From an uncultured Bdellovibrionales bacterium (GTDB lineage Bacteria; Bdellovibrionota_C; UBA2361; SZUA-149): a DNA stretch of 64,000 nt. Below are positions 1 through 52,625 of this stretch, in pieces (the first letter of the stretch is position 1; the number at the start of each line of letters is the position of its first letter). The stretch spans positions 10,916 to 74,915 of the forward strand of contig CBDUGV010000001.1 of NCBI GenBank assembly GCA_965366815.1, written 5' to 3'. A program made the translations under genes and the position numbers. The notes below the pieces were generated by a model. That model saw nothing but the letters and a program-made list of their open reading frames with translations. It did not search any database and was not told the DNA's origin.

Positions 1-155
1 AGCTAAATGTTTCTACTTTGAGTCCGGAGCTACGCTCGACATTTGAAACAATATCAGAAATTTTTCCAATGCTTGAAGACGATCGAGCACTCGAAGGTGA
101 ATTGCGGGCCGTCATAGACTTAATCCGTGACAAAGCATTCACTTTGTATCAATAG
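1..155 (+). CDS. partial CDS (3' end only); possible acyl-carrier-protein-like C-terminus
   Basis: Open frame from the window edge to TAG at 153-155. Translates ...VSTLSPELRSTFETISEIFPMLEDDRALEGELRAVIDLIRDKAFTLYQ; the helix pattern loosely resembles the ACP DSLD-helix region. Sits directly upstream of KAS/KR genes. Weak. Confidence 0.25.
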   Translation, partial: LNVSTLSPELRSTFETISEIFPMLEDDRALEGELRAVIDLIRDKAFTLYQ

Positions 156-182
156 AACGTCACGCGCGACAGCAAGGTTGTA

Positions 183-1805
183 ATGGATACGACCAAAAAC
201 CTCTCCCCAGATGTTGTCATTCTAGGCGGTGGATTGGCCGGATTAAGCCTTGCGCTCCAGCTCAAGCAGCAATCTCCTTCGATAGATATCTGCGTTTTGG
301 AGCGGCGCTGTTTCCCCATGCCAGAGGCGGCTCATAAAGTCGGAGAATCCACTGTTGAACTCGCGACACATTATTTTGCTGATGTGCTCGGGTTAAAAGA
401 ACATCTCGATACCGCGCAGCTACCGAAGCTTGGCTTGCGATTCTTTTTTAGTGCTGCGGAGAATCAGCAGATCGAGAAACGTTTGGAGGTCGGTGCACGA
501 GCCTTTCCACCCACGGCGAGCTATCAACTCGATCGCGGCATTTTTGAGAATTTCCTCGCCGATCGCTGCAAAGCGATGGGAATCACTTTGCTCGATGGGG
601 CCAAGGTGCGCACTGTGGAACTCGGAGAAACCAAGCACCAGGTATCGCTGCGCTGGGGTTCAGAAGAGCTGGCGATTCCATGCAGCTGGGTAGTCGATGC
701 GACGGGACGTGCCGCGGTGTTAAAACGTCAATTGGGCCTACAACAAAAATCCGATCACAAAGCGAACGCCGCCTGGTTTCGCGTTGATTCTAAAATAGAC
801 GTGCAATCTTGGAGCGATGACGCTGATTGGCAAGCTTTCAGTGAGAGTTCTCGTTGGTATAGCACCAATCATCTAATGGGAGATGGGTATTGGGTTTGGC
901 TTATCCCACTCTCTTCTGGAGCAACCAGTATTGGCATAGTTGCCGACGATCAGCTTCACCCACTCTCTTCATTTAACACCTTGGAGAAAGCACTTGCCTG
1001 GCTCGAAGAACATGAACCGCAGTGTGCTGCCAAGATTGCCGAGGCTGAGGCTGAGGTAATCGATTTTATTGCACTCAAACAGTACTCGCATGACTGCAAG
1101 CAGGTTTTTTCATCCAAGCGCTGGTGCCTTACCGGAGAAGCTGGTGTGTTCCTCGATCCCTTTTATTCGCCCGGAAGCGATTTTATCGCAATGAGTAATA
1201 CCTTTATCTGCGATCTCATTGTTCGAGACATCAGTGGTGAGCCATTTGCAGCCCAGGCAACTTTCTTCAACGATTTGTATCTCTCGCTCTATCGGAATAC
1301 TGCTACGATTTTTCAGGATCAATACAAGCTGTTTGGGCACCCGGAAGTAATGCCCATGAAAATAGTTTGGGATTTCGCAACGTATTGGACTTTTATGGCG
1401 TTCCTCTTTTTCCAGGGTAAGCTTTGCGATTTCAGTGCATTTATCGGAATGAGAAAAGACCTCGACCGAATAGCTGCATTAAACGCCTATATGCAGCGCT
1501 TCTTTCTCCAATGGCATGAGCAGGCACCTAAAGATTCGAACGCTTCTGGCCGCGTCGATCTTTTTTCCGTCGGCTACCTCCACGATCTCAATGTCGGACT
1601 GACGAAAGATGTCCAGCAGGGACTCAGCACCGAAGAAGTGCAACAGCGGCTTGCCGAAAACACCGAGAAACTCGAGCAGCTCGCGGTGGAAATGGTGACT
1701 CGCGCTACTAAAAGTCACCCAGAACTACAATCCGAGGAGTTGCCAGGTAAAGCAGCAACTCCGCATGCACAATTGGATCGATTCTGTGCCGGAATTCGCT
1801 TATAG
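183..1805 (+). CDS. flavin-dependent halogenase (tryptophan-halogenase family FAD enzyme)
   Basis: N-terminal GxGxxG FAD motif (ILGGGLAGLSLA). WxWxIP signature of flavin-dependent halogenases (GYWVWLIPL). Conserved Lys in AHKVGEST. 540 aa. Confidence 0.7.
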   Translation: MDTTKNLSPDVVILGGGLAGLSLALQLKQQSPSIDICVLERRCFPMPEAAHKVGESTVELATHYFADVLGLKEHLDTAQLPKLGLRFFFSAAENQQIEKRLEVGARAFPPTASYQLDRGIFENFLADRCKAMGITLLDGAKVRTVELGETKHQVSLRWGSEELAIPCSWVVDATGRAAVLKRQLGLQQKSDHKANAAWFRVDSKIDVQSWSDDADWQAFSESSRWYSTNHLMGDGYWVWLIPLSSGATSIGIVADDQLHPLSSFNTLEKALAWLEEHEPQCAAKIAEAEAEVIDFIALKQYSHDCKQVFSSKRWCLTGEAGVFLDPFYSPGSDFIAMSNTFICDLIVRDISGEPFAAQATFFNDLYLSLYRNTATIFQDQYKLFGHPEVMPMKIVWDFATYWTFMAFLFFQGKLCDFSAFIGMRKDLDRIAALNAYMQRFFLQWHEQAPKDSNASGRVDLFSVGYLHDLNVGLTKDVQQGLSTEEVQQRLAENTEKLEQLAVEMVTRATKSHPELQSEELPGKAATPHAQLDRFCAGIRL

Positions 1806-1832
1806 AATTTTGGAGCTGAGGTACTGCGTTCG

Positions 1833-3059
1833 ATGAGCAAGGCAACAGAAGCAACTGCAGCGGGAAAGACGGGCTATCGGCTTGCTGCCCTTGGCATGAT
1901 CAATGCTCTCGGACAAAGCGGAGATGAGATCTACGAGCGACTGCTCGACGCAGACACAAGTGTGCTAACGAAGCGAGACGATCTGATTCCCAATCGAGAA
2001 GTCTTGGTTGGCCAGGTACGAGCGCCACTACCGGAGATTCCAGAGGAGTTCAGCGACTACGCCTCGAGAAATTCACAACTAACTGCAGCAGCCTATCAGC
2101 AGATCGCCGCTGAGGTGCAGCTTGCAGCTCAGACCCATGGTGCCCATCGAATCGGAATTGTCCTTGGGTCGAGCACCTCTGGGATTGCCGAAAGTGAACG
2201 AGCGATAGAGCACTTGGTTGAGACCGGTTCCATGCCAAGCGACTATCGGTACTCTCGACAAGAGATCGGCAGCGTTGCAGAGTTTTTGTCGAAATACGCC
2301 GGATTAACTGGACCAAGCTACACGGTATCAACTGCTTGCACCTCGAGTACGAAAGCGTTTCTATCAGCTCGCTCGTTGCTCGAGAACGATCTGTGCGACG
2401 CGGTAGTCGTTGGGGGTGCTGACTCACTTTGCAAGTACACCCTTAATGGATTTAACTCGCTCGGACTTCTTTGTGAGGGAATCAGCAATCCCTTTAGCGT
2501 ACATCGCTCAGGAATCGTGATTGGAGAGGCGGCTAGTTTGTTCCTACTGACAAGAGAGGCTGGAGGAATTCAGTTATTAGGCGTAGGACATTCCGCCGAC
2601 GCATATCATATGTCGACTCCGGATCCTGAAGGCAAAGGTGCTGATAGCTCCATGCGCATGGCATTGCAGGACGCAGATCTCGCCCCGAAGGATATCTGCT
2701 ATATCAATTTACATGGAACGGGTACACCAGCGAATGATTCAGCTGAGGCAAGCGCAGTTCGAAAGATTTTTTCCGAAGATACACCTTGTAGTTCAACTAA
2801 ACCGTTGACCGGTCATACACTTGGAGCAAGTGGAGCGACGGAAATTGGCTTTTGCTGGCTCTGCCTCGAGAGACAACTGCAAGAAGGCATCCCCATACCT
2901 CCTCATAGCTGGGATGCGCAGGTTGACGAGCAGTTTCCGAGTCTGCGATTAGCAACAAAAGGACTGCACCTTCGCGCAGATGCGCCGATGGCGTTCTTGA
3001 GTAACTCATTTGCGTTTGGTGGGAGTAATTGCACAGTAATAATAGGCCGCGAGGGCTGA
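1833..3059 (+). CDS. beta-ketoacyl-ACP synthase (KAS I/II family, FabB/FabF-like)
   Basis: Active-site Cys in GPSYTVSTACTSS. HGTGT and GHTLGASG His motifs. About 410 aa. Confidence 0.85.
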   Translation: MSKATEATAAGKTGYRLAALGMINALGQSGDEIYERLLDADTSVLTKRDDLIPNREVLVGQVRAPLPEIPEEFSDYASRNSQLTAAAYQQIAAEVQLAAQTHGAHRIGIVLGSSTSGIAESERAIEHLVETGSMPSDYRYSRQEIGSVAEFLSKYAGLTGPSYTVSTACTSSTKAFLSARSLLENDLCDAVVVGGADSLCKYTLNGFNSLGLLCEGISNPFSVHRSGIVIGEAASLFLLTREAGGIQLLGVGHSADAYHMSTPDPEGKGADSSMRMALQDADLAPKDICYINLHGTGTPANDSAEASAVRKIFSEDTPCSSTKPLTGHTLGASGATEIGFCWLCLERQLQEGIPIPPHSWDAQVDEQFPSLRLATKGLHLRADAPMAFLSNSFAFGGSNCTVIIGREG

Positions 3060-3505
3060 TGACCGTACCAGAAATCGAAAATAACACGTTTCCGGCGATT
3101 GCTGACTGTCTTCCCCATGCGGGCGAGATGGTGCTACTCGATGAGATCCTCGCCGCCGGTCAAGAGTTCGCTGAATGCAGTGTGGTCGTTGGAGCCGATA
3201 GCTTGTTGCATACGGCAGTGGCGGAAGTACCTGTTTGGGTAGGCATCGAGTACATGGCACAATGCGCGGCGATTTTTGCTGGTTTATCGGCGAGCGACGA
3301 CGGACCGAAAGTCGGATTTCTTCTTGGGTCCCGCAAAGTGACTTGTTCGACCGAAGCATTTTATCCCGGACAAGAGCTCAGGGTACGGGCGGAAATCGCT
3401 GGCACCTTTGGAACTATGTGCTCATTTAATTGCAGTGTTGTTGATCGTAAGACGAATGACGTGCTCATTACAGGTAAGTTGAATGTCTACCTCCTCGAAG
3501 ACTAA
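3059..3505 (+). CDS. hotdog-fold 3-hydroxyacyl-ACP dehydratase-like protein
   Basis: Track ORF 3029-3505. Likely start is the ATG at 3059-3061 overlapping the KAS stop (TGATG). Small (about 148 aa) protein between KAS and ketoreductase, as in aryl-polyene/FAS-like cassettes. Family assignment is from context and size only. Confidence 0.45.
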   Translation: MTVPEIENNTFPAIADCLPHAGEMVLLDEILAAGQEFAECSVVVGADSLLHTAVAEVPVWVGIEYMAQCAAIFAGLSASDDGPKVGFLLGSRKVTCSTEAFYPGQELRVRAEIAGTFGTMCSFNCSVVDRKTNDVLITGKLNVYLLED

Positions 3506-4229
3506 ATTACAGCGTATTCTAGTGACTGGCTCAAGCCGTGGGATCGGTCGTGCCTGTGCCGAGCGCCTCGCTCGCGATGGATTTCATGTTATCCTTCACT
3601 GCGTACGTAATCTCGCAGCAACCCAAGAAGTTGCGGAAAACATTACTTCACTCGGTGGTGAGTGCTCCCTATTGCAATTCGATGTGTCAGACCGAGAGCA
3701 ATGTCGAACTTTAATCGCTGCGGAGATTGAAGAACATGGGCCGCTGTTTGGCCTCGTTTCAAACGCCGGTATTATATCTGATGCTCAGTTTACCGCACTC
3801 GCTGGAGAAGATTGGGATAGCGTCATTCACACCAACCTCGACAGCTTCTACAACGTAGTTCAGCCGATGGTCGGACCGCTCATCGCCTCGCGTATGAAAG
3901 GCCGAGTAGTCTGCATGTCTTCGATATCGGGAATTATCGGCAATAAGGGCCAGGTAAACTATAGCGCTGCAAAAGCGGGAATAATTGGTGCAAGCAAAGC
4001 GCTCTCTCAAGAGGTCGCGCGCCGTGGGATCACGGTAAATTGTGTCGCGCCAGGTTTGATAAAGACCGACATGGTCGCCGACGTTCCGCTTGAACAAGTC
4101 ATGCAACATATTCCGATGCGACGCCTCGGTAAGCCCGAAGAAGTTGCTGGAGTCGTATCCTTTCTTTGCTCGAGTGATGCATCCTATGTGACGGGGCAGG
4201 TTATCTCAGTCAATGGCGGGATGATCTAG
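3483..4229 (+). CDS. 3-oxoacyl-ACP reductase (SDR family, FabG-like)
   Basis: TGSSRGIGRA cofactor motif, NAG, catalytic YSAAK. 248 aa. Confidence 0.85.
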   Translation: MSTSSKTKLQRILVTGSSRGIGRACAERLARDGFHVILHCVRNLAATQEVAENITSLGGECSLLQFDVSDREQCRTLIAAEIEEHGPLFGLVSNAGIISDAQFTALAGEDWDSVIHTNLDSFYNVVQPMVGPLIASRMKGRVVCMSSISGIIGNKGQVNYSAAKAGIIGASKALSQEVARRGITVNCVAPGLIKTDMVADVPLEQVMQHIPMRRLGKPEEVAGVVSFLCSSDASYVTGQVISVNGGMI

Positions 4230-4297
4230 CGATGCAGGGCTATGAGAGCAAACTACTTCTCTGTCACCTAGTTGCTGCCTCAGAGTAGGAGAGACTT

Positions 4298-5086
4298 TTG
4301 ATTCGTCGTCGGTTTCAGTTGTTTGAGTTTGGAGACCAAGCCTATTTACCGGAAGCTGTTCGCCGGGTGTACCACGACTGTCTTGGTTTTGTCTCACGCG
4401 CGTGCGGGTTCTACGATCGGATGTATGTCCCGTTCTCAACTTGGACGAAAGATTCGCACGAACAAGCTGTTTTGGATCTTGCGTCGGGGGCGGCCGGACC
4501 AATTGAAACCATGTTGGGACGGGCAAAAGAAAACAACGTCAAACTGCCAAAAATCGTCCTCTCGGATCTCTATCCAAACGAAGAACAGTTTGAAACCTTA
4601 CGCAACAGATTCGGATCAGAACACGTCGCTTTTATGAAAGCTCCCGTTTCAGTTACCGATGCAAGCACAGAGGGATATCCTCTACTCAGCATTTGTGCGG
4701 CTTTTCATCATTTTCCCCCAGAGGTCGCACAAAGCATTATTGCGCAATCTATCAACAAGGGGCGCGGTATTTTCATTGTCGAACCGTTTGAACGCAAGTT
4801 CAGCACCGTTCTCACCACTGCGCTCATCGGTCCCCTACTTGGATTTGCATCTCCGTTCTTTCGCTTCCCCTGGCGCGCCCGGAATTTCTTACTTTGTAGT
4901 ATCTTCCCAGTTGTTCCACTGATGGTCGCCTTCGATGGGATTATCAGCGTTTTACGGAGCTACTCGAGCGATGAACTACAGGCGATGCTTCCCAAAGAAA
5001 GGCTCGATCAGCTCCGAGTACGTTCGGGGCGACTACCGACTCGTATACGGCAACCCGCAACTTTCTTCTACGCGATTCGTCGCTAG
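4298..5086 (+). CDS. putative class I SAM-dependent methyltransferase-like protein
   Basis: TTG start preceded by AGGAGAG. VLDLASGAAGP resembles MTase motif I, LSDLYP resembles motif II. Weak. Confidence 0.35.
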   Translation: MIRRRFQLFEFGDQAYLPEAVRRVYHDCLGFVSRACGFYDRMYVPFSTWTKDSHEQAVLDLASGAAGPIETMLGRAKENNVKLPKIVLSDLYPNEEQFETLRNRFGSEHVAFMKAPVSVTDASTEGYPLLSICAAFHHFPPEVAQSIIAQSINKGRGIFIVEPFERKFSTVLTTALIGPLLGFASPFFRFPWRARNFLLCSIFPVVPLMVAFDGIISVLRSYSSDELQAMLPKERLDQLRVRSGRLPTRIRQPATFFYAIRR

Positions 5087-5398
5087 AATGTCTGTTCAAG
5101 CAAACTCATGCGAGCCTGCCCTAAGTGTCCCACGATCTTGCCTTTGCTCACGTCGGCGCGGCCAATATTTCTATCTGGCTTACACATCTCCTGTTCTTTT
5201 CAGGGCTTGAGGACCAAGACAAACGAAGGAGTCACCCACAATTAGAATTTAAGGTAATAACTACAGATAGTTACAGATTGTCATAATTGCACTCGGCGTG
5301 TTACCAAATTACTACCTAATAATTTGCTATCCTTTGACATTATTTCCGCATGAATTCGCATAACATATCACGTGTGAGTAAATTGGTGTGAGGATGCA

Positions 5399-5785
5399 AT
5401 GAAGATGAGGGCTACGGCAGTCGCAGCACTCTTATGTATGGGCGTATTGGCAATTACGCCACTGGCCCATGCGGAGGCAGAAAGACATTCATCAGTTGAC
5501 GAAGAGCAGACTTGGCTCGTCAAACGACGACAATGGCTCGCCGATCGATGTTCGCGTAAACCGAAAGACCCGCGGTGTCGCCGTTACCTCCAGCAAAGAG
5601 CGGCGATGCAAGTTGAACGAACAACTGTCATTCTCGATTGTGAATCCGATCCCTATGACAAGCGCTGTATCAATGTTGATCGCATGCAGGAGCGCCAGCT
5701 CAGATGGAAAATGCGTTCAGAGCTTGGCGCCTACTGCCGTGAAAATCCAGATGTGCCTCGCTGTCAAAAAGACAACTCTGAATAA
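5399..5785 (+). CDS. secreted Cys-repeat protein (hypothetical)
   Basis: Signal peptide MKMRATAVAALLCMGVLAITPLAHA. Three tandem C-x8-C units (CSRKPKDPRC, CESDPYDKRC, CRENPDVPRC). Lies downstream of a 310-bp AT-rich intergenic region. Confidence 0.5.
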   Translation: MKMRATAVAALLCMGVLAITPLAHAEAERHSSVDEEQTWLVKRRQWLADRCSRKPKDPRCRRYLQQRAAMQVERTTVILDCESDPYDKRCINVDRMQERQLRWKMRSELGAYCRENPDVPRCQKDNSE

Positions 5786-5893
5786 CTACCCCAAACACCT
5801 ACCCCATTCAGCGCATGAGCGATTCTCGGCCGAGTCTTAAATAGTCCAATCACCTGTTGAACCAGTACTCGAGTCCTCGAAGCGAGGCTTCAG

Positions 5894-7789
5894 CTATACC
5901 GAAGGGGCATCAGGAGTCATTGCTGAGTACGAATGTAGCCTGGCATCCGCTTTGCCATTCTGATGATACGGCAAGGCACCATATCGGCGATTGCGTTTTA
6001 GAAAATCCAGTAAGCAGGAGCGGTAGAGCAGTTCATCAAAATCTGGCCAATACTCAGGTATAAACAGCAATTCGCTATATGCCGCTTGCCAAAGGAGAAA
6101 GTTCGATAGACGTCGCTCCCCACCCGTGCGAATGAGTAGATCGGGATCGGGTACATCCGGTGAATACAGAAAACGACGAATCTCTAAACTGTCGAGTTCC
6201 TCTGGAGTAACTTCACCACGAGCTACCCTATCGGCGACTGTGCGCAGGGCTGAATCTATCTCATGTCTACTACCATAGGAGATAGCCAGGATAGCATCGA
6301 GAGAGTCGCAGTTCTCGGTTAAGGCTTCGCAATCAGCAATGAGCTCTTGCAACACCGGAGAAAGCCGCGAGCGGTCGCCAACTACCCGCAGGCGAATGTT
6401 GTTTTCAACTAATTTCTCCTGCTCTGTTCTTAGATATCGCTCCATTAACCGAAAGAGACCATCAACTTCAGCCTGTGGGCGAGACCAGTTCTCGGTCGAA
6501 AAAGCATAGAGCGTCACATAGCGAACGCCCAATCGCTTCGACCACTCAATAATTTGCTGTACCCTTTGAATACCAGCGGCATGCCCCTGCAAACGTGGCA
6601 ATCCACGAGCCCGGGCCCAACGACCATTGCCATCCATAATGATTGCGACATGCTGAGGAGCTTTCCCTGGGAGCGGCTTCGGCTCAGCACCTTCACGAGC
6701 ATCAGAAAAAAATGCGATCACTACGGTTCCACATAGCCAACCAAAGGGAATATAACCGAGATACCCCAAGAGCGGCATCTCGAACACATGAAACACATCG
6801 ACATAGGAAACGTGATAAACCCATTTCGGGGCACTGTAGAAGTTCCACATCTCCCATAAAAATCCACAGAGGAGACCTCCTCCCGACCAACAAATGAGTG
6901 AACGGCTATCCCCGTGTATCAGATCCGAATACACATGACGCTGTGCGCATATCTGTTGGAATGCGGGGACTGCAAATGCTGGCGCAAGCCAAACCATCGG
7001 GTAGAGCTCTGTCGGATAGTGGACAAGTAGTATCAAGGGTATTAATGACCCGAGAAGCAAACACCACCAAAAGACACGATCTTGCAGCATAGGAATGGCA
7101 CAGCTGGTAGAAATGAGCGTCAGCCGCTCTAACAAAAGTTCACAGAGTTCTTTGCTGACGTGAACCGCTGGGAGCACAGTCGCAAATGAAAAACTCGCAA
7201 GTACTATGTAGCCAAGCGGCGAAATTGTTCCTAGCTCGATATAGGCCCAATTCTCAACCACTCGATTCATGTATTCGAAACTCCACCAAAAGAGAGCGCT
7301 CACCGGGAAAAGCAGTAGATAGGCCATGGGGCGGCGATGGAATGGCGCTGTGCCGGAGAGGCAAATGCAAAGCGCATTGGCGAAAAAAATATAGCCAAAC
7401 CAGATGCCGCTAAAGGTGAAAAAGCGCAGAGTATTCTCTTCCGAGGCAAAACCCCAAGCAGTAACCCAAGAAGCCAGCATGAGAACTAGCGAGAAATACC
7501 CCCAGATTGGGAATGCTGCGACAACTGGTGGAAGGGTACATTGATGATCGAGTGAATCCATCACGCGTTCAAATAACACGATGCAGCAAGTTGCGATGAA
7601 TAACAAACCGAGTACAACTAACCACAGCGACGTGGGCTGGTGGTCAATCCGTGTAGAGACTGGAGGGAATTCAAAAAGGTGTTCATACGGCACCCCGAAC
7701 TGGAGCCCGCTCAGCACAACTAGTACAGTACACACCAGCATTCCAAGGCTCGCGACTGAGGCGTTTTTGTACTTGTTCAGCGCGATCAA
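5894..7789 (-). CDS. fusion protein: N-terminal polytopic membrane domain (about 390 aa, unknown) + C-terminal undecaprenyl-diphosphate synthase (cis-prenyltransferase)
   Basis: C-terminal domain has canonical UppS motifs HVAIIMDGNGRWA, YAFSTENWSRP, RTGGERRLSNFLLWQ. N-terminal part is multiple hydrophobic helices. Confidence 0.8.
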   Translation of the reverse strand: MIALNKYKNASVASLGMLVCTVLVVLSGLQFGVPYEHLFEFPPVSTRIDHQPTSLWLVVLGLLFIATCCIVLFERVMDSLDHQCTLPPVVAAFPIWGYFSLVLMLASWVTAWGFASEENTLRFFTFSGIWFGYIFFANALCICLSGTAPFHRRPMAYLLLFPVSALFWWSFEYMNRVVENWAYIELGTISPLGYIVLASFSFATVLPAVHVSKELCELLLERLTLISTSCAIPMLQDRVFWWCLLLGSLIPLILLVHYPTELYPMVWLAPAFAVPAFQQICAQRHVYSDLIHGDSRSLICWSGGGLLCGFLWEMWNFYSAPKWVYHVSYVDVFHVFEMPLLGYLGYIPFGWLCGTVVIAFFSDAREGAEPKPLPGKAPQHVAIIMDGNGRWARARGLPRLQGHAAGIQRVQQIIEWSKRLGVRYVTLYAFSTENWSRPQAEVDGLFRLMERYLRTEQEKLVENNIRLRVVGDRSRLSPVLQELIADCEALTENCDSLDAILAISYGSRHEIDSALRTVADRVARGEVTPEELDSLEIRRFLYSPDVPDPDLLIRTGGERRLSNFLLWQAAYSELLFIPEYWPDFDELLYRSCLLDFLKRNRRYGALPYHQNGKADARLHSYSAMTPDAPSV

Positions 7790-8151
7790 GACTTCACCGG
7801 CTTGGCCAGAGGCGAAACGGATTCGGTTTTCTCGAGCGCACGGGCTCGTTTTGCCGCCTGCTTCAAGACATTCTCCAATACGCTCAGGTATTCCAGAAAC
7901 TGTTTTCGACCTGATGCAGTCGCAGAGATAGTAGTGCGCGGTTTCGATCCGACAAATCCTTTCTTAATCTTTACAACTCTGGCTTTTTGCAAGGTGGAAA
8001 GATGTCGACTGAGATTTCCGTCGGTTAAACCACAGGCCGACTTTAGATCGTTAAACGCCGCACCCTCCGGCGTACCGCAGAGTTCCGACATAATGGCGAG
8101 CCGATTCGGTTCATGAAACAGTTTCTCAAGTGCATCATACTCGATTGACAT
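7786..8151 (-). CDS. ArsR/SmtB-like winged-helix transcriptional regulator
   Basis: Track ORF extends to 8304 but overlaps the upstream gene. ATG at 8151 (MSIEYD...) sits 1 nt past the upstream stop. HEPNRLAIMSELC ... GNLSRHLSTLQKARVV fits the ArsR HTH pattern. The 3' end overlaps the start of the UppS-fusion gene (ATGA-type overlap). Confidence 0.55.
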   Translation of the reverse strand: MSIEYDALEKLFHEPNRLAIMSELCGTPEGAAFNDLKSACGLTDGNLSRHLSTLQKARVVKIKKGFVGSKPRTTISATASGRKQFLEYLSVLENVLKQAAKRARALEKTESVSPLAKPVKS

Positions 8152-8155
8152 ACTA

Positions 8156-8785
8156 CTCAACTCCCAGTTCAAATGAAGTTCGTCCTCGCTCTTGCCGGCG
8201 AAGAAAATATCCCGCAAACAATTCACCGACAAAGAAAACAATCGCCATTGGCCAAGGGTTGGTAAATGGGATACTCGGATGAAAGATGACGAGGAGTGCC
8301 CCACAGGAAATGTAGTACAAGCCGACGTACCACATCGCTATCGGCAGGGAGCGACGAGAGGAAACATTCACCAGACCGTAGACACACATCCACACTATAA
8401 ACAGCAGATCATAGGCACCATATTTGTAGAGCGCCGCAGTACAGATTCCACCCACCACAAGCGGTGGAAGTGCATCAATCGCTGGACGCAAGAGCAAGAG
8501 TTCTCGCTCGCTTTGTCGCCGATACCAAATACCGAGAGCACCGTAGTTCAAGAGAATACCGATGAGGCAGACAAGTCCCCAGCCAAGAAAATGCATTTCA
8601 ACTTCTTTGGGAAATGTTGGCGTACTCATGATCGCGGCACAGAGAATCGCCGCAGAACCGCCCAAAACTCTCGCAAACCCCGAATAGCCTTGAAATTCCT
8701 GGTTTTCAATTACGCGAGCCCGAAGTTCTCGCACCTGATCAAGAGCGTGATGTATGTGATTAAACACTAAGCCGTCCGAAGTCAT
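8156..8785 (-). CDS. integral membrane protein (hypothetical)
   Basis: Multiple hydrophobic helices. First gene of the minus-strand operon 8785->5894. Confidence 0.5.
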
Positions 8786-10563
8786 GCTACTTTCTTGGTC
8801 CGATATAAACTACATTCATTAATAATATGCCTCATGATGGTATCTGGGTCATACCGATGGAGCGCCTGCTGCTCGGCTGGGCTGGCATGAGAGACGAACG
8901 CATCATTAACTCCGAATCTTCGAAGCGATCCTTGCAGGGGTATTTGCAAGTCGTTCACAAGCTCGAGTACCGCGCTTCCAAACCCCGCCATGAGTGAATG
9001 GTCTTCAATAGTGCAAACCAAAGGATAGTAAGGCAGTTCCTCTGCAAAGAGTGCAGTATCAAGCGGTTTTACGAATCGTGGATTCAGCACTGCCACATTG
9101 ATACCGAAGTTCTCTTGAAGCTGCTGGCGTATGGTCAAGGCGGTATGGACAAGCGGCCCAAGTGCAATGAGCAAAGCATCGTCGCCTTCAGCCACAAGTT
9201 CGCCCCTCCCAATAGGCAACTCTTTTAGCGAATCATCCATTGCAACTCCAACCCCTCGTCCTCGAGGATATCGTATCGCCGACGGGCCTTCTCTCATCAG
9301 CGCAGTAAAGAGCATATGCTGCAATTCGTTCTCGTCTTTTGGCGAGTAGAGGGCCAAATTCGGAATAGATCGGAGATACGCAATATCGAATACACCTTGA
9401 TGCGTTTCGCCGTCATTGCCAACCACACCACTTCGATCTAGGGCAAAGACGACCGGAAGATTCTGGATACAGACATCATGGAGCACTTGGTCAAATCCGC
9501 GCTGTAAGAAGCTTGAATAGATGGCGCAGAATGGTCGAGCACCTTCACAAGCCAAACCGGCAGCAAAGGTTACCGCGTGTTGCTCACTGATCCCGACATC
9601 GAAGAACGAATTCGGAAACTCTTTGGCAAATCGACTCAACCCCGTACCTCCGGGCATCGCAGCAGTCACCGCAATGACTCGAGGATCCTGGCGAGCGAGC
9701 TCACTCATCGTCTGCCCAAACACCTCTGAATATGTCGGAGGAACTAGGAGCTCGCGGACAGTCGCCTGGCAGGGAGGCTTGAGAGCGTGAAATGCCAGAG
9801 GATCAGCTTCGGCTCTCTCAACGCCCTTCCCCTTGACCGTTTTTACATGGAGCACGACTGGGCCTTGCAGCGTTTTCGCATGGTTTAATGCTTCAAGCAG
9901 AGAGGATACGCAGTGACCATCGCTGGGTCCCAGATAGCTAAAACCGAGCGTCTCGAAAAAACCCCTCAGCTCAGATTGCTGCGCGAGCGCTCCGACATTT
10001 TCGGCGATCGACATGCCATTGTCATTGAGCACGACAATAAAGCGTTCGAGTTGGGCGCCGCCAACTTGATTTAAGGCTTCAAAGGCCATACCAGCAGTAA
10101 GCGAACCATCTCCTATCACACTCACGACATAGTTCTCATTGCCGCGACGCCGAAACTCAGACGCAATGCCAGCTGCGGCGGAAATACTGGTCCCGGCGTG
10201 ACCCGCGCCAAAAGTATCGAAGTGGCTCTCGCTTCGCTTGAGGTACCCAGATAGACCACCCCGAGTGCGTATAGTGCCAAGCAGCTCTCTCCTGCCCGTG
10301 AGCATCTTGTGAATGTAGGCTTGGTGACCAACATCCCAAACGAGTCGGTCATCAGGAGTCTCGAAGCAATAATGGAGAGCGAGGGTAAGCTCTACTACTC
10401 CTAAGCTCGGCGCAAAATGACCACCGACGGCGGTAATCACTTCAACCAGCTCCTCTCGAAGCTCAGCGGCAAGTAGTTCCAAGCTTCCCGCATCCATCTG
10501 TCGAAGCTCTGCGATCGGATGTAAGTCTTTCATAAATCCCACTTCTGTTGCTACTACAGCCAA
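8782..10563 (-). CDS. dxs: 1-deoxy-D-xylulose-5-phosphate synthase
   Basis: N-terminal GGHFAPSLGVVELTLALHY, DVGHQAYIHKMLTGRR, TPP-binding GDG...NDN region. 593 aa. Confidence 0.95.
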   Translation of the reverse strand: MAVVATEVGFMKDLHPIAELRQMDAGSLELLAAELREELVEVITAVGGHFAPSLGVVELTLALHYCFETPDDRLVWDVGHQAYIHKMLTGRRELLGTIRTRGGLSGYLKRSESHFDTFGAGHAGTSISAAAGIASEFRRRGNENYVVSVIGDGSLTAGMAFEALNQVGGAQLERFIVVLNDNGMSIAENVGALAQQSELRGFFETLGFSYLGPSDGHCVSSLLEALNHAKTLQGPVVLHVKTVKGKGVERAEADPLAFHALKPPCQATVRELLVPPTYSEVFGQTMSELARQDPRVIAVTAAMPGGTGLSRFAKEFPNSFFDVGISEQHAVTFAAGLACEGARPFCAIYSSFLQRGFDQVLHDVCIQNLPVVFALDRSGVVGNDGETHQGVFDIAYLRSIPNLALYSPKDENELQHMLFTALMREGPSAIRYPRGRGVGVAMDDSLKELPIGRGELVAEGDDALLIALGPLVHTALTIRQQLQENFGINVAVLNPRFVKPLDTALFAEELPYYPLVCTIEDHSLMAGFGSAVLELVNDLQIPLQGSLRRFGVNDAFVSHASPAEQQALHRYDPDTIMRHIINECSLYRTKKVA

Positions 10564-10639
10564 GGTAGCACAAAGTACTTTGCTTCACAAAGTGAATTCG
10601 CGGTGAAGTGCCCTTAAGTAGTTGTAACCGCTGATTAAT

Positions 10640-11620
10640 TTAGCTCTGGGCTTGTTTGCGAAAGCGTGTGAGTTCTTCTGCCATCGACTGGATGTCATCC
10701 CGCTCGAGGTTGCTCGTATGAATTAGAGCTTCTAGTTCGTGAATTCGCTGATCGAGCACACGGGCCACAGCCGAACGAAGGTCTCGGCAATAGCCATTCG
10801 GACCAGCTGAGATAAGCTGCCAAAACACCTCTTGTTCTGTGAGATGATCCGGCACTGTTACACAGATCTCGGGGGGCAGAGAATCGGGATTCTGTTCATA
10901 GAAGCGCATCCAGGTCTCCAGGCCCCGCATTTTGTGTTCTGCTGTTTTCCAATTTGCCCAAAAATGAAACACCGTTGGCTCAGAGACAAAGCGAAAACTC
11001 CCAGCACCACCATATTGAATGATTCGTGCGTAGAGATCCCAATCGCCATTTCGAAGAAGTGCTTCATCCCAGTAACCAACACTTTCTTGGCACCGACGTC
11101 GGTACATAACTGCAGAAGCCGGAATGGCATTGAAATTTCGCTCGAGAAATCCTTTGCAAATGTGGGGATTCTCCAAATTAAACGCGAGGGGAATAACATA
11201 TCCTCTATCGGTAACCCAGAGAGGGCGAGTCTGCACCAGAAGCACATCGGAATGGCCAAACGCCTTCAGGCAAAGCGCTAAGTGATCGGGGAATAAGAGA
11301 TCATCATGTGCGATAAAGCCGACATACTCCCCCTGAGCTTCTCGAAGGGCCACATTTCGGTTGCCATAGCCAAATCCGGGACCTTTCGGCAAATCAAACC
11401 AGCGGATTCGCTCATCGCCGAACGCGGTAACAACGTCAGCGGAATTGTCTGTGCAGCCATCCCCTACTACGAGCAGTTCGAAATCCTCCTGCGTTTGTGC
11501 AAGCACAGAGCGAATAGCAAACTGCAAGACGTCAGCTCGGTTATGGGTGGGCAAAAGAAGTGAAAATCGTGGGGCGGAGCTCAAACTTGTCTTACCTTTA
11601 ATAGCCGAGCGAATAGTCAA
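10640..11620 (-). CDS. family 2 glycosyltransferase
   Basis: LLLPTHNRADVLQFAIRSVLAQT...FELLVVGDGCTDNS GT-A N-terminal motif and DxD. Confidence 0.8.
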   Translation of the reverse strand: MTIRSAIKGKTSLSSAPRFSLLLPTHNRADVLQFAIRSVLAQTQEDFELLVVGDGCTDNSADVVTAFGDERIRWFDLPKGPGFGYGNRNVALREAQGEYVGFIAHDDLLFPDHLALCLKAFGHSDVLLVQTRPLWVTDRGYVIPLAFNLENPHICKGFLERNFNAIPASAVMYRRRCQESVGYWDEALLRNGDWDLYARIIQYGGAGSFRFVSEPTVFHFWANWKTAEHKMRGLETWMRFYEQNPDSLPPEICVTVPDHLTEQEVFWQLISAGPNGYCRDLRSAVARVLDQRIHELEALIHTSNLERDDIQSMAEELTRFRKQAQS

Positions 11621-12137
11621 ACTTATAGGGAATTTGATCGGTATCTAACGGAAGTCGATATTTGTCCGGGTCAGCGTGGTCATAGGGAATTGTCGGAAAA
11701 TTAGTCAGTACCACTTCCTTCTCACTCACGCAGCGCACCGCATGCCAAATCCCGGCTGGTATATTCATTAGGCGGCGATTGAATTCAGTCAGTACTACTT
11801 TTGCGACAAGACCAAAGGTTGCTGACTCGGGTCGAGAGTCGTAGAACACGACCTCCATTTCCCCAAACATTACAAAATAGCGATCTTCGTGACGCTTGTG
11901 CATTGCCCAGCCTTTCACTTTGCCAGGGCGAATAGTGCAGCAATAGCAATAGACAAGTGGATCGGGATGCCAGGCCCACTCTGGATTAAACAACTCAAAC
12001 AAGGAACCTCGCGAGTCAACATGTGTTGGCGTCTCTCGAAAGGTAACCCCAGCAGGAAGCGGATCAACGCTGACTCCTTCAGGAGTTACTGTTTGTCGAT
12101 CTTGAACCTCGCCTTTGGGAATTGGTACTGTTGCCAT
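11598..12137 (-). CDS. cupin-fold sugar-nucleotide epimerase-like protein (dTDP-4-dehydrorhamnose 3,5-epimerase RmlC family?)
   Basis: Probable start MATVPIP at 12137; track start 12221 is further upstream. DSRGSLFELF and IPAGIWHAV resemble RmlC motifs. Confidence 0.45.
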   Translation of the reverse strand: MATVPIPKGEVQDRQTVTPEGVSVDPLPAGVTFRETPTHVDSRGSLFELFNPEWAWHPDPLVYCYCCTIRPGKVKGWAMHKRHEDRYFVMFGEMEVVFYDSRPESATFGLVAKVVLTEFNRRLMNIPAGIWHAVRCVSEKEVVLTNFPTIPYDHADPDKYRLPLDTDQIPYKFDYSLGY

Positions 12138-12322
12138 AGACCTAGTTGATTGTCCGCTACTGGAAAATGGGTTTACATCAGTGGTTGTGTCTACTTTGAA
12201 ACGAAGAACCAAACAAATCAAGTCGGCTCCAATCCAGGAATTTCAGAGAATGCAATTAGCAGTAGTTCGATGTTACAATCCGATCATATTGCTTCTCTGT
12301 CGCCTAGCCAAGTAGTAGCTAC

Positions 12323-14242
12323 TTATGATTTCCGGACAAGAATGCGACCGTCGCCTTTTCGCTTGGTGAGGCCGCGAGAGTCGAAGTGCTCGAGGACATG
12401 TACCGCAACATTGCGGCTTGTTGCCGTTGCGTCGCGAAACTCCTTGAGTTCGACGATTTCTTTGGTAGCAAACAGTTCCAAAAGCTTCTGCTCCAAATAA
12501 TCAACAACAGATCGGGAAACGAGGTTGCTACCGAATACGGCAATTTCTCCTTCGTCAGACAAGAGCTTGATGATACGCCGCCATTCTTTTTCGGCGATTT
12601 TTAGCTCTGCTTGGAGATTTCCCTTTGCAATACTTTGCATACCGGCTTTCTCTAGCGCCCCGAGAATGGCATCACGTAGGGCAATCTCTCTAGCGCTAAT
12701 CGCTGGTTCAAAGTCGCTAAGTGCCAAACAATTGTTCCTGAGCTTTAAATCACTATCACCCTTGAGGTGTTTCCACAGGCCGACAAATCCACTTTTCGGA
12801 ATACGAAGCAAATCGCAGACGTAGCTTTGCTGCATTCCTAAGGATAGAGGGTTTGCCTTATGATAGCCGCGCAATTGCCGTTTTAGTACATCGCGAAACT
12901 CATTTACCCTTGGCACGACCAACCAACTATCATCGCCGATTTCAGCAAGGATTTGTTCTTTGATCAAGGCCGCAATGCTCTGCTTGACCTCGGTTTCATC
13001 GAGCTCAGTGCTCAGTATAGCCTGCTTGAGTTCAACAATTGGCTGCTCATTCCCATAGCAAAGGGCTCGTACAAACTCACCAGCTTCAACCGCAGCAGCA
13101 GCCTCCGTGAGTCGTTGGCAAAAAGCTGGTCCTTGGGTAGTAACTCTCTGGTCGCGCAGGGAGAGTACTCGACCGCCTCCTATCGTCTCCGCCGGGGAAA
13201 GAGTTCTCAAGATGCAGCTGTCGCCAACGCAAAATATCTGTGGGTAGTGAAAAGAAAGCGCCACTAAACCGCTCTCACCAGGCTCTATCGCTTTCTCAGT
13301 CAGCGAATGGGCATCAGCAACTGCCGCAATCGTCCCCAAGTGAAATCGCAGCTTAATGCGCTTGCCCAAAACAGGAGAGGTACCGTGATTGCGAACGGTA
13401 GTCACTGCATGTTTTGTTGTTCGAAACGAACCTGGCGTCACCAGCGCCATTCCACGCTGAAGCTCTCTTGGCTCGATATCGCGCAAGTTTATTGCCGTAC
13501 TTATATGAGCCCGTACAGTCTTCGCCTCATGACGATAGTTCTGTAGAGCTCTTATTCCACAGAGCCTGTCTGGGGGTAACAGCTGGATTCGGTCTCCGCT
13601 TTGACACTCACCACTCTGAGGCACTCCGGTGACCACCGTCCCATAGCCCTTCATGGTAAACGCCTTGCGCACATACATTCGAAACGCTTTTGCTTCCTGT
13701 CGTCGCGGAATTTCAGCAACGAGCGAAGTAATTTTCGAACGAACCTCCTCGATGCCTTGACCAGTTTCATTTGAAACGTGGACGACAGGCACATCTTTGT
13801 ATCCAAGGTCCTCAAGAAACTCTCGCAGATCATCTTCAACGATTGCAATCGTTTCTTCATCCACGAGATCAATCTTAGTCAGTGCAACCATCAACCGAGA
13901 CATGCCCAACATACTGGCAATACGCATATGTTCAGCTGTTTGCGGCATTACAGAATCATCCGCCGCAACAACAAGCATCAAAACATCAATTGAAGATGCC
14001 CCGGCTACCATATTTCGGATAAAATCCCGATGACCCGGCACATCAATGATACCGACCATTCGCTCGTCAGTCAGTCGACAGGGAGCGACTCCAAAATCAA
14101 TCGTCAAACCGCGTTCTCGCTCTTCTTTAAGAGTATCGGTTTCCACTTGGGTGAGGTTTCGCACGAGCGAAGTCTTACCGTGGTCTACATGCCCGGCAGT
14201 ACCAACCATCACTTGAAGAATTTCAGATGCGGTATCGGTCAT
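12323..14242 (-). CDS. selB: selenocysteine-specific elongation factor
   Basis: GTPase G1 [19 protein letters not shown]. 639 aa with long C-terminal winged-helix extension. Directly downstream of selA. Confidence 0.9.
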
Positions 14243-14251
14243 CTATTTGAT

Positions 14252-15655
14252 CTACTCAGCCTCAGAGAAGACGTCGAGCAATACTGCTGAAAGTCGATCG
14301 AGATCATCAGAGAAAAGAGTACGCATATCAAAGACGAGTTGACCTTCATGGATTCGACAAAACACCGGTGGAATCGAAAGACGAAGCATCCGAGCATAGA
14401 CATCAGCATCATCGCCTTGCTTATCCGACTGCGTCGTTCGAATTTCAACTACAATGGTCGGGATCGCCTCAGTCGGTAGAGAACCACCACCAACGTAGGA
14501 GGTATCTTCAGCAATAGTGCAAGAGATGTTTGTAATCGGCTTCAAGCGAGCGACAAGTGTCTGTGCTCGAGAGCGCAACTGTTCCTGGGAAACGGAAAGC
14601 ATCTGATAGAGCGGTAGGTTCTGCTCCTGAGTACCAGCAACAAACTCGGCGATAGTTGCCTCAGTTCCGGCAAGGGTGAGTTTGTCAGTTCGAAACATTC
14701 GCATAAAAGGCGATTTGCGCACGCGCTGCACCAGATCCGCGCGCCCACAAATTATTCCGGCTTGCGGTCCCCCAATCAGCTTGTCTCCACTCGAACAGGT
14801 AATCGCAGCTCCAGCGCTAATCGCGTCAGCAATAGTAATGACTTTCTTCAACCCGTACTGAGCCATCGGCACCAAGGCACCACAGCCCAAATCGGCAATA
14901 ACTGGCACCTTGTGTTTCTGTCCGAGATTGCAAAGTTCTTCCAAAGATGGATACCCGGCAAACCCTTGTACACAGTAGTTCGAAGGCTCAACGTAGATTA
15001 TCGCAGCGGTGTTTTCATTAATTGCCCGCTCGTAGTCATACAGATGCGTTTTATTGGTGGTCCCAACCTCACGCATCACTGCTCCACTCTGCTCCATCAC
15101 GTCGGGCATACGGTAGGAACCGCCGATCTCAACCATCTGACCTCGACTGAGAATAACTTCGCCTCCCGCCGAGATAATATGCAACAGCATAAAAGTGGCT
15201 GCGGCATTATTGTTGACGAGCGTCGCTGCCTCACAACCAGTCAGCTCAATGAGCATTTGTTGAATTTTTTCTTCCCGGAGCGAGCGGCTGTTATCAGCCA
15301 AATTTATCTGCACTACCCCAAATCCGGAGCCCGCCGCGACTGCCTCCAATACGGTGCCACCCAGTGGGGCGCGCCCCAATCCCGTATGGAGTAACACGCC
15401 AGTTGCATTAATCGCATGGCGCGCTTGGGGATTTGTCAAACGTTCGAGGCGCTCAATTACCTCATCGACTAATTCATCGATGTCCGGAACAGCGCTTCGC
15501 TCATTGGATTGAATTTCAGAGCGGATTTCTTCAACCCGCTGACGAACGAAGAACTTAACCAAGCCCTCCCCATAACGACCACAAAGGTCTCTGCCCACCG
15601 AAGATGTGAGCAACTTTGATACTGCAGGCAGTGAACGCAGCAAGTCTTGGCTCAT
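14252..15655 (-). CDS. selA: L-seryl-tRNA(Sec) selenium transferase (selenocysteine synthase)
   Basis: 467 aa. N-terminus LRSLPAVSKLL typical of SelA; PLP-enzyme core. Adjacent to selB and tRNA-Sec. Confidence 0.9.
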   Translation of the reverse strand: MSQDLLRSLPAVSKLLTSSVGRDLCGRYGEGLVKFFVRQRVEEIRSEIQSNERSAVPDIDELVDEVIERLERLTNPQARHAINATGVLLHTGLGRAPLGGTVLEAVAAGSGFGVVQINLADNSRSLREEKIQQMLIELTGCEAATLVNNNAAATFMLLHIISAGGEVILSRGQMVEIGGSYRMPDVMEQSGAVMREVGTTNKTHLYDYERAINENTAAIIYVEPSNYCVQGFAGYPSLEELCNLGQKHKVPVIADLGCGALVPMAQYGLKKVITIADAISAGAAITCSSGDKLIGGPQAGIICGRADLVQRVRKSPFMRMFRTDKLTLAGTEATIAEFVAGTQEQNLPLYQMLSVSQEQLRSRAQTLVARLKPITNISCTIAEDTSYVGGGSLPTEAIPTIVVEIRTTQSDKQGDDADVYARMLRLSIPPVFCRIHEGQLVFDMRTLFSDDLDRLSAVLLDVFSEAE

Positions 15656-15675: not shown

Positions 15676-15769
15676 TGGCGGAGACGTATGGGAATCGAAC
15701 CCACCCAGGACCCTAAAGCCCTACAACGGTTTTGAAGACCGAGAGCACCACCAGGCACCAAACGCCTCC
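15676..15769 (-). tRNA. selC: tRNA-Sec (anticodon UCA)
   Basis: Reverse complement reads GGAGGCGT...CTTCAAA (U33, UCA, A37)...long variable stem-loop...GGGTTCGATTCC T-loop...ACGTCTCC-G-CCA. 8-bp acceptor stem and about 94 nt length, typical of bacterial tRNA-Sec. Genomically encoded CCA. Confidence 0.8.
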
Positions 15770-44043: not shown

Positions 44044-44667
44044 TTATTGGTCTTCATCGAACAGTTTGAGGAATTCAGCATATCCCTCTTTCTCAAGCTG
44101 TTCTTTGGGGATGAAGCGCAGGGCAGCGGAGTTGATACAATACCGCTGTCCGCTCGGTTTCGGACCGTCAGGGAATACATGTCCTAGGTGTGAATCAGAT
44201 TTCTTGCTGCGAACTTCGATGCGCGTCATGCCGTAACTCTTGTCTTTCACTTCGACAATGCTCTCTGCATCGAGTGGCGCAAAGAAGCTTGGCCAGCCAG
44301 TGCCTGAAACAAATTTCGTGGTCGAACTAAACAGAGGTTCCCCGGAAATAACATCAACATAAATTCCTGGCTTTTTGTTATCCCAGTACTCGTTAGAGAA
44401 TGGTCGCTCGGTGCCGTTTTCCCGAGTGATATGATACTGATCTGGGGTCAGGCGCTTCTTCAGTTCGTCATCACTTTCCATCACATACTCCTTGTAATGC
44501 GGTCTTTCTCTAGATTCCTTGGACGTCTCCAATCGAGATTGGTTCTCCGACTCAACCGATTTCGCCACACTTTGAGCTTTAGTACCGGCGTCATCTTCTC
44601 TAGAAGTGCAAGAAAGTGGAGCCGCTAAATAAAGCGAAGCAATAAGGGTACAGGCTATCGTTTTCAT
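44044..44667 (-). CDS. msrB: peptide methionine-(R)-S-oxide reductase, secreted/lipoprotein form
   Basis: MsrB motifs [44 protein letters not shown]-terminal signal peptide. Confidence 0.85.
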
Positions 44668-52379: not shown

Positions 52380-52625
52380 TTCCGGCTCAAATTGCCTAGG
52401 GATTATTGCTAGTTATTTAGAGTACTTAGCCCCTACCTGTACGCCAATCCCCTAAACCTGACAAGTATGGTTGACAAAAAGGCGTAAATTCACTACTCAT
52501 TTGCTGAGGATTGAAGCATAACTATGAAGAATCAAGACTATAGAATATCCAAGTGCTCAATAATGAACGAAGTGGTGGTGGAAATGCGTGGTGTGTCTCG
52601 GCACTTTATACTCGGCAAACGCTTG

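Follow-up and report, generated by a model that had tools for sequence, protein, structure and literature searches.

Aryl-polyene (APE) biosynthesis is a very common and well-studied bacterial pathway. In Escherichia coli, ApeH loads the aryl starter directly on an acyl carrier protein (ACP), ApeO and ApeC elongate the chain, ApeQ reduces it, and ApeI and ApeP dehydrate it (PMC8253772). In Xanthomonas clusters, a halogenase gene adjoins the gene pair for the ketosynthase (KS) and the chain-length factor (CLF) (PMC3691225), and an entry in the reference list of PMC3949708 describes xanthomonadin I of X. juglandis as dibrominated. In the alterochromide pathway, the tyrosine ammonia-lyase (TAL) AltA supplies coumarate, which passes to an ACP and is extended to a polyene, with bromination of the ring by the flavin-dependent AltN at a stage that is not known (PMC5577590). 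Here, we describe a related locus at positions 1–5086 of a 64,000 nt stretch of DNA (the window) from an uncultured Bdellovibrionales bacterium (contig CBDUGV010000001.1). This segment is probably the 3′ half of an 11-gene, single-strand APE-type cluster, with a core resembling type II polyketide synthases (PKS) and fatty acid synthases (FAS). The cluster itself is only moderately novel.

Biosynthetic core and gene order

The five co-oriented plus-strand open reading frames (ORFs) proposed in an initial annotation of the window were all found, as were the two junctions described there: base 3059 belongs both to the stop codon of the β-ketoacyl-ACP synthase (KAS) gene and to the start codon of the dehydratase gene (..TGATG..), and the dehydratase and ketoreductase (KR) ORFs share 23 nt (3483–3505). 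The remaining intergenic gaps measure 27 nt (lyase to halogenase), 27 nt and 68 nt. GC content is approximately 0.50 and flat over the cluster and its flanks, and so gives no compositional sign of recent transfer.

The annotation had also held that the cluster continues upstream, and this continuation can be seen on L001, a 200 kb ENA metagenome contig that is near-identical to the window and from which the upstream gene order was taken. Window position 1 corresponds to L001 9819, the first 60 window bases are identical to L001 from that point, and the L001 protein P0001 matches the window halogenase with 100 % identity at BLAST resolution. The frame at window positions 1–155, first taken for a possible C-terminal fragment of an ACP, is in fact the end of a 516 aa aromatic ammonia-lyase ORF (L001 8423–9973); the true ACP gene is two genes further upstream, beyond the window edge. 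The upstream genes are tightly spaced on the same strand as the rest of the cluster, and they include the components for which an upstream search had been proposed (an ACP, a second KAS or CLF, and a lyase or ligase for the starter unit), in the form of a CLF, an ACP, an adenylating fusion protein and the ammonia-lyase. The complete order is 59 aa protein, CLF, ACP, ApeH–ApeI fusion, ammonia-lyase, halogenase, KS, ApeP-like dehydratase, KR, methyltransferase-fold protein and a possibly unrelated 128 aa protein (Table 1). On L001, the stretch from the 59 aa gene to the methyltransferase gene is 5075–14904.

The KAS, hotdog dehydratase and FabG-like KR families named in the annotation all held up, and direct BLAST comparison with the APE cluster of E. 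coli CFT073 (L092 23728–38749) placed them among the Ape proteins. The KAS is 44 % identical to ApeO over its full length, scores 494 bits against the NCBIfam model NF006618 (cutoff 407), and has the Cys-His-His residues (TACTSS, HGTGT, GHTLGASG). The dehydratase matches ApeP (27 % identity, E 9e-16) and PF22817 (56.8 bits, cutoff 27) and has the LPH..LLDE motif, and the KR is 58 % identical to ApeQ and scores 351.8 bits with TIGR01831 (FabG2; cutoff 338.85). These three genes follow each other in the ApeO–ApeP–ApeQ order of E. coli. Upstream, the CLF matches ApeC (26 % identity, E 9e-23), the ACP matches ApeE (48 %), and the fusion protein matches ApeH over residues 7–478 (29 %) and ApeI over residues 496–591 (35 %). 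A catalytic His is present in both hotdog domains, that of the ApeP-type protein (LPH..) and that of the ApeI half (GHFP). Judged from these sequences, the core is by every test that of an APE type II PKS, with direct loading of the ACP predicted.

Table 1. Genes of the cluster and its immediate neighbours; positions are those of the window unless L001 is given
Feature	Position	Strand	Length	Evidence or remark
Pyridine-nucleotide-disulfide oxidoreductase–SelD fusion	L001 2788–5061			Ends 13 nt before the 59 aa ORF
Small protein	L001, first cluster ORF		59 aa	
CLF, Ketoacyl-synt_2	L001 5262–6074		270 aa	PF13723, 189.8 bits
ACP	L001, upstream of window		97 aa	NF006617, 89 bits (cutoff 70); LDS serine motif
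AMP-binding enzyme and ApeI-like dehydratase fusion (ApeH–ApeI)	L001, upstream of window		594 aa	PF22818, 65.6 bits (ApeI part)
Aromatic ammonia-lyase, C-terminus	1–155	+	Last 51 codons with stop	Translation is the end of the 516 aa ORF on L001
Flavin-dependent halogenase	183–1805	+	540 aa	PF04820 Trp_halogenase
Elongating KAS, ApeO type	1833–3059	+	408 aa	NF006618
Hotdog 3-hydroxyacyl-ACP dehydratase, ApeP type	3059–3505 (alternative start 3029)	+	148 aa	PF22817
3-Ketoacyl-ACP reductase, FabG2/ApeQ type	3483–4229	+	248 aa	TIGR01831
Class I S-adenosylmethionine (SAM)-methyltransferase-fold protein	4298–5086	+	262 aa	Predicted structure; no Pfam match
Secreted Cys-rich candidate	5399–5785	+	128 aa	Signal peptide; repeated 'P/K-R-C' motifs

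Related loci show how far this arrangement is conserved. A core of ACP, ligase–dehydratase fusion, lyase, halogenase, ApeP, KR and methyltransferase is common to the loci L083, L084 and L085/86, the halogenases of which are 57–60 % identical to that of the window; L083 also has a KS with an alpha/beta hydrolase upstream and, downstream, a second paralogue of the halogenase (13569–15194). L010, from a Vulcanimicrobiota metagenome-assembled genome (MAG), has the same enzyme set minus the methyltransferase, with its genes partly on the opposite strand. A canonical APE cluster is found in the more distant L090 (53 % identity), where a GT2/lipid-A acyltransferase, a 4HBT thioesterase, LolA_3 and DUF3261 accompany a lyase of the same clade, the same fusion and a halogenase; here, too, the gene set lies partly on the opposite strand. 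In L091 the order is halogenase, DUF3261, KS, ApeP, KR and second KS, which from DUF3261 onwards is the N-O-P-Q-R order of E. coli. Homologues of the 59 aa and 128 aa small proteins were found in none of the related loci. A separate case is L089, where two halogenase paralogues stand side by side (8197–11692) with an RND efflux pair and a protein with adenylation and peptidyl carrier protein domains; its lyase is a distant aromatic ammonia-lyase (31 % identity) with a different motif 1, and the set suggests a different halogenated aromatic pathway.

The halogenase and the methyltransferase-fold protein

The 540 aa protein scores 67.5 bits with PF04820 (Trp_halogenase; cutoff 21). In an alignment of 30 homologues (48–60 % identity), the GxGxxG FAD motif (G15-G16-G17..G20), K52-x-G54-E55-S56, K82 and the FxxPxxSxG motif (F323..D325-P326..S329-P330-G331) are invariant in 30 of 30. 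The same is true of WxWxIP (W237-x-W239-x-I241-P242, here W237-V-W239-L-I241-P242), the motif from which the gene was originally called a flavin-dependent halogenase. K82 aligns with the Lys pair of PltA and CmlS, and these two proteins are also the best of the 17 PDB sequence matches at E≤0.001, every one of which is a flavin-dependent halogenase or the uncharacterized flavoprotein 3nix; there was no geranylgeranyl reductase among the 17. An AlphaFold (AF2) model of the protein (predicted local distance difference test (pLDDT) 90) gave phenol and pyrrole halogenases (CtcP, PltA, PltM, CmlS, Bmp2, CndH and others) or 3nix as its top 47 Foldseek matches in the PDB. The protein is thus a flavin-dependent halogenase, by sequence, of the xanthomonadin/APE-associated family, and its activity is predicted.

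We surveyed 588 relatives of the halogenase, taking one genome per species, and inspected the neighbourhoods of the best 80 loci. An APE-type KS and CLF lie within 3 kb of the halogenase homologue in 37 of these 80. They include Xanthomonas halogenases that adjoin KS–CLF (48–49 % identity), among them that of X. arboricola pv. juglandis. Planctomycetota relatives (49–53 % identity) have no KS or CLF neighbours, so the halogenase family extends beyond aryl polyenes. The arrangement is more than chance: the gene order is repeated in at least six further independent contigs, and KS–CLF accompanies the halogenase at the 37 of 80 loci. The initial proposal of a halogenated cassette of aryl-polyene or xanthomonadin type is supported; the core matches the E. 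coli Ape proteins, and the halogenase is of the family found in Xanthomonas clusters.

The last gene of the set, annotated as methyltransferase-like, keeps that description at the level of fold. Its 262 aa product has no match in Pfam-A, and its only NCBIfam match is to PRK06202, at 31 bits against a cutoff of 243. The AlphaFold model (pLDDT 92.7), which has two hydrophobic helices inserted after strand 5, matched only class I SAM methyltransferases in a Foldseek search of the PDB (TM score 0.45–0.53, 10–16 % identity, E down to 1.7e-7), including BpumL (E 1.7e-7), ChlM, Coq5 and DnrK. Conserved motifs are LDLxSGxGGP, SDLYP, PVDAT and AFHHF, with an invariant D90 after strand 2. Where a word-indexed search gave only 19 homologues, an exhaustive profile search yielded 4,172 representative clusters at E≤0.001, of which 1,393 at E≤1e-30, so the protein is a member of a large family without a Pfam model. 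Homologues that are 38–45 % identical hold the same slot after the KR gene in L083, L084 and L085/86, and none was found in the proteobacterial loci, L010 or L090. The homologue P0127 adjoins a ketosynthase and the more distant P0135 stands in an unrelated context; linkage to ketosynthase or aryl-polyene genes is a property of the closest family members only. We also considered the E. coli methyltransferase ApeB as a counterpart and rejected it, there being no BLAST similarity between the two proteins. From its modelled fold, we regard the 262 aa protein as a putative tailoring methyltransferase.

Starter unit, proposed pathway and alternative readings

The ammonia-lyase upstream of the halogenase matches PF00221 at 525 bits and contains the ASG triad of the methylideneimidazolone (MIO) cofactor (GSVGASGDL). 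Its motif 1, LTRFHGCGLG, aligns to LVRSHSAGVG of the tyrosine aminomutase (TAM) SgTAM and to LVLSHAAGIG of the Pseudomonas histidase (HAL), so that the selectivity pair is Phe-His, in which the His aligns with SgTAM His93 and HAL His83. SgTAM His93 presumably contacts the phenol OH of tyrosine. Motif 2, STECHNQDKVSM, aligns to HNQD of phenylalanine ammonia-lyases (PAL) and phenylalanine/tyrosine ammonia-lyases (PTAL) from parsley and grasses, with Gln and not the histidase Glu. The published rule is that Gln at this position marks a PAL or TAL and Glu a histidase, and FlxA, a proven TAL, has the same pairing of a HAL-like motif 1 with Gln at motif 2 (PMC3992019). The six homologues linked to such clusters (L083, L084, L085/86, L010, L090 and the window contig) have both motifs in identical form. 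From these sequence features, the lyase would make an aryl-acrylate, most probably p-coumarate; its substrate, taken from context, is most likely L-tyrosine.

The enzyme families, catalytic motifs and conserved synteny that we observe are consistent with a model in which we infer substrates, order of steps, chain length, halide and product fate, and which, by analogy, most likely works in the manner of flexirubin and alterochromide biosynthesis. Deamination of an aromatic amino acid (most likely L-tyrosine) by the ammonia-lyase would give p-coumarate, which the adenylating ApeH half of the fusion would load directly onto the dedicated ACP. Iterative malonyl extension by KS/CLF, with reduction by the KR and dehydration by the ApeI domain and ApeP, would proceed without enoyl reduction, so that the product would be a hydroxyphenyl-polyenoyl-ACP. 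The FADH2-dependent halogenase may then add Cl or Br ortho to the phenol, on an electron-rich ring, and the methyltransferase-fold protein may methylate the head group. The product would be a halogenated aryl-polyene lipid of the yellow-pigment type.

Several findings weigh against this interpretation. In L084 and L085, close relatives of the locus, the flanks contain neither KS nor CLF; the core can thus exist without a dedicated elongation KS, which makes chain length unpredictable. No second, initiating KS (ApeR) was found in the cluster, the single KS matching ApeR at 27 %. This is a weak objection, since the primary APE-lipid is still detected in an apeR deletion mutant of E. coli (PMC8253772). 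Among the larger ORFs of the window, scanned with Pfam, and the precomputed Pfam calls for the 10 kb upstream, there was no thioesterase, acyltransferase, LolA-like, MMPL or DUF3261 protein and no flavin reductase. As such genes were not found nearby, release, attachment and the supply of FADH2 are unexplained. The lyase reaches no curated NCBIfam cutoff for HAL, TAL, PAL or TAM, and its Phe-His pair is neither the His-Leu of TALs nor the Phe-Leu of PALs, so that it does not pass the classical TAL test; we take the TAL pair to be His-Leu with the His at RsTAL His89. Given this pair and the unreached cutoffs, tyrosine use is a step that we infer. Lastly, a promoter and terminator scan of the locus returned fewer sites than shuffled controls, and the limits of the operon therefore rest on gene spacing.

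One rival reading is the case that the initial annotation itself named as refuting its proposal: the 540 aa protein would group with geranylgeranyl reductases or other non-halogenating FAD enzymes lacking the catalytic Lys, and would sit beside ordinary housekeeping fab genes. Such an enzyme could also be an aromatic hydroxylase, and the neighbours would be fabF, fabZ and fabG. The KAS and KR do show generic FabF/FabG similarity, and the 540 aa protein matches a geranylgeranyl-reductase model (67.5 bits, cutoff 158.8) and UbiH-type hydroxylases, both below threshold. However, Lys82 and the halogenase-specific motifs are invariant, the sequence and fold matches are to halogenases or 3nix, and the neighbours match dedicated Ape proteins of E. 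coli CFT073. The KAS, ACP and KR pass the cutoffs of the APE-linked models NF006618, NF006617 and TIGR01831, whereas the housekeeping models stay below theirs (fabF TIGR03150, 205 against 494 bits; TIGR01830, 271 against 298 bits), and the Pfam families matched by the dehydratases are those of ApeP and ApeI. On motif, profile and synteny tests together this reading is ruled out, and we allow it next to no chance. Another possibility retains the APE core and changes its primer: in a pathway of the xanthomonadin or E. coli APE type, 3- or 4-hydroxybenzoate would be made elsewhere, and the lyase would be a catabolic histidase that adjoins the other genes but takes no part in the pathway. Among named organisms, the nearest counterparts of the halogenase, KS and CLF are those of Xanthomonas xanthomonadin clusters, and the NCBIfam models that the lyase matches best are histidase models (430 and 416 bits). 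These scores fall short of the histidase cutoffs, however, and motif 2 has Gln in place of the histidase Glu. The lyase gene also lies inside the operon, immediately before the halogenase gene, and this or an in-cluster position is kept in six lineages, while Pfam and NCBIfam detected no XanB2-type chorismatase among the cluster genes. Benzoate priming is highly improbable on this evidence.

Two further readings concern the details of the proposed pathway. The lyase may be a PAL, or may act on phenylalanine, m-tyrosine or halotyrosine, giving a cinnamate-type starter, and the halogenase may act before deamination or at another position. Like PALs, the enzyme has Phe as its first selectivity residue, its C-terminal active-site loop most resembles that of plant PAL/PTAL, and which substrate such an enzyme uses is not predictable from sequence alone (PMC3992019). 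On the other side, the second switch position holds a His that aligns with SgTAM His93. Flavin-dependent halogenases require an electron-rich ring, and unsubstituted phenyl is a poor substrate. Moreover, the characterized lyase-primed aryl polyenes are all tyrosine-started (PMC3992019, PMC5577590), and we consider a different substrate or order of steps unlikely. It is also conceivable, with a small chance, that the halogenated aryl-polyenoyl-ACP is only an intermediate for an acceptor encoded elsewhere, whether a non-ribosomal peptide synthetase (NRPS), a dialkylresorcinol, or a lipid reached through unlinked ApeD/J-type acyltransferases. Alterochromide and flexirubin biosynthesis use such a hand-over (PMC5577590, PMC3992019), L090 carries a full attachment and export set beside the same core, and neither the cluster, the 64 kb window nor the 10 kb upstream contains a release or attachment enzyme. 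By the same token, NRPS, DarA/DarB and acyltransferase genes are themselves absent from the window and the 10 kb upstream, as is, in the Pfam scans, a phosphopantetheinyl transferase. This reading is a refinement of the lyase-primed, halogenated APE pathway and not a true alternative to it.

Neighbouring genes and comparison with known systems

The 128 aa protein encoded 312 nt 3′ of the methyltransferase gene is probably secreted and Cys-rich, and is probably not a member of the cluster. Of the minus-strand genes that follow, the two isoprenoid genes, for an undecaprenyl-diphosphate-synthase (UppS) fusion and for DXS, were considered as cluster members and rejected, as they lie on the opposite strand and adjoin the cluster in no relative. 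The first encodes a protein (5894–7789) that has the UppS domain at residues ~375–605 and an N-terminal extension of ~350–370 aa without a Pfam or NCBIfam match. On the same strand come an ArsR-type helix-turn-helix gene (7786–8304), an unknown 210 aa protein (8153–8785) and a DXS gene (8782–10563), whose 583 aa product is unusually short compared with ~640 aa in relatives. No relative of this DXS exceeds 64 % identity, and its named matches, at ~53 %, are spread over Deltaproteobacteria, Oligoflexia and Nitrospiraceae MAGs.

Genes of selenium metabolism recur near the cluster and its relatives, and SelD (selenophosphate synthetase) genes do so in three different arrangements. On L001, the oxidoreductase–SelD fusion that precedes the first cluster ORF by 13 nt is of the Cys type, with a C-x-x-C-A-A-K motif. 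Stand-alone SelD genes directly follow the methyltransferase gene in L084 (13190–14122) and L085 (13783–14784), in each case with an in-frame TGA at the SelD active site (..AGG-TGA-GSKIGP..; GG-U-GSK) at ~13150–13190 and ~13740–13783, respectively; these are probably selenocysteine (Sec)-containing proteins, the N-termini of which were cut off by the gene caller. In L072 (5684–9018), from a Burkholderiales MAG, a SelD-like gene (5684–6922), a GT1 gene and an EgtB-like DinB_2 plus FGE-sulfatase gene adjoin a xanthomonadin-type halogenase; this trio presumably resembles the senC/senB/senA selenoneine cluster. No SelD was found in L089–L091. Within the window itself, all on the minus strand, are genes for SelB (12323–14242) and SelA (14252–15655) and for a tRNA-Sec with anticodon TCA (15676–15769), the last being the only hit of an Rfam scan. 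The pigment cluster and ~7 kb of minus-strand genes lie between these sel genes and the upstream SelD.

The SelD domains are ~30 % identical to each other and the cluster enzymes 57–65 %, so the adjacency looks independently acquired. A rough and unchecked estimate of the adjacency expected by chance is ~0.1 loci among those examined. The SelD of the window contig may simply be a housekeeping gene, given the SelB, SelA and tRNA-Sec genes nearby. We consider a functional tie between the cluster and selenium metabolism very unlikely; if it were true, it could point to a selenium-modified product or a co-regulated antioxidant island.

Further along the window, two tandem plus-strand genes encode Ser/Thr protein kinases, each with C-terminal ankyrin repeats (21094–22917 and 22926–24671), and a 2110 aa minus-strand protein (27856–34188) joins PD-(D/E)XK nuclease and UvrD-type helicase domains, like a single-chain AddAB/helicase–nuclease. 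The genes for ParB (38251–39135), ParA (39125–39892) and a member of the Replication-initiator-protein-A family (40648–42054) form a plasmid-like partition and replication module within otherwise chromosomal-looking sequence. Other features are a polyprenyl synthetase (37294–38190, minus strand), an MsrB (SelR-domain) protein with an N-terminal extension of ~70 aa (44044–44667, minus strand) and a PEP-CTERM protein (52524–53420, plus strand).

Our results overturn no current understanding. The locus represents a natural 'minimal' version of the pathway, with seven core functions in six proteins, owing to the ApeH–ApeI fusion, plus a lyase, a halogenase and a methyltransferase-fold protein, from an uncultivated, deeply branching source. 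Because this minimal gene set comes without lipid-anchoring or export genes nearby, it could be a handy, compact template for making halogenated aryl polyenes in a heterologous host. It is also an entry point to the uncharacterized Phe-His clade of aromatic ammonia-lyases and to a ~260 aa methyltransferase-fold family that has thousands of members and no Pfam model. Literature searches for aryl polyene with tyrosine ammonia-lyase, and for aryl polyene with halogenase and ammonia lyase, returned nothing relevant.

Compared with the APE clusters of E. coli CFT073 and Xenorhabdus doucetiae (ApeA–ApeS), the locus shares the ApeC, E, H, I, O, P and Q functions at 26–58 % identity. The locus differs in that ApeH and ApeI, adjacent in E. 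coli, are fused, in that an in-cluster ammonia-lyase takes the place of a 4-hydroxybenzoate starter, and in the presence of a halogenase and of a methyltransferase-fold protein that is no ApeB homologue. The window lacks counterparts of ApeA, B, D, F, G, J, K, L, M, N and R, and a tblastn search of the 64 kb with all 18 E. coli Ape proteins matched only the KS, dehydratase and KR. Within the window and the 10 kb upstream, the locus is therefore not a full canonical APE cluster, as the attachment and export genes (ApeD/J/K/L/M/N) are absent. The xanthomonadin (pig/xan) cluster of Xanthomonas and the arcuflavin cluster of Azoarcus, whose products are brominated, methylated aryl polyenes, have a halogenase of the same family (48–49 % identity) adjoining KS–CLF. 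Xanthomonadin, however, is primed by 3-hydroxybenzoate from XanB2, whereas here there is a lyase instead and no XanB2-type gene in the cluster, and the glycosyltransferase, acyltransferase, LolA and exporter genes of Xanthomonas-type clusters are absent from the window and the 10 kb upstream.

Flexirubin biosynthesis (flx; Chitinophaga and Flavobacterium) is likewise a TAL-started, type II FAS-like aryl-polyene pathway, and FlxA has the same combination of motifs as the lyase described here. The equivalog cutoffs of that system are not reached, the lyase scoring 328 against 700 bits with NF053541 (FlxA) and the KR 279.8 against 340 bits with NF053542 (FlxB). In flexirubin synthesis, 4-coumarate is activated by the CoA ligase FlxY and the polyene is esterified to a DarA/DarB dialkylresorcinol, whereas this locus has an ApeH-type ACP loader and scans of the window gave no KS-III or DarA-like ORF. 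The alterochromide pathway (alt) of Pseudoalteromonas piscicida is alike in logic: it too leads from a TAL through coumarate and ACP to a polyene built by KS, KR and dehydratase, with a halogenase, but there the acyl chain goes to a three-protein NRPS and becomes a lipopeptide, and no NRPS was found here. Set beside its relatives, the window cluster has the look of a trimmed descendant of an APE lineage that is lyase-primed and carries a halogenase.

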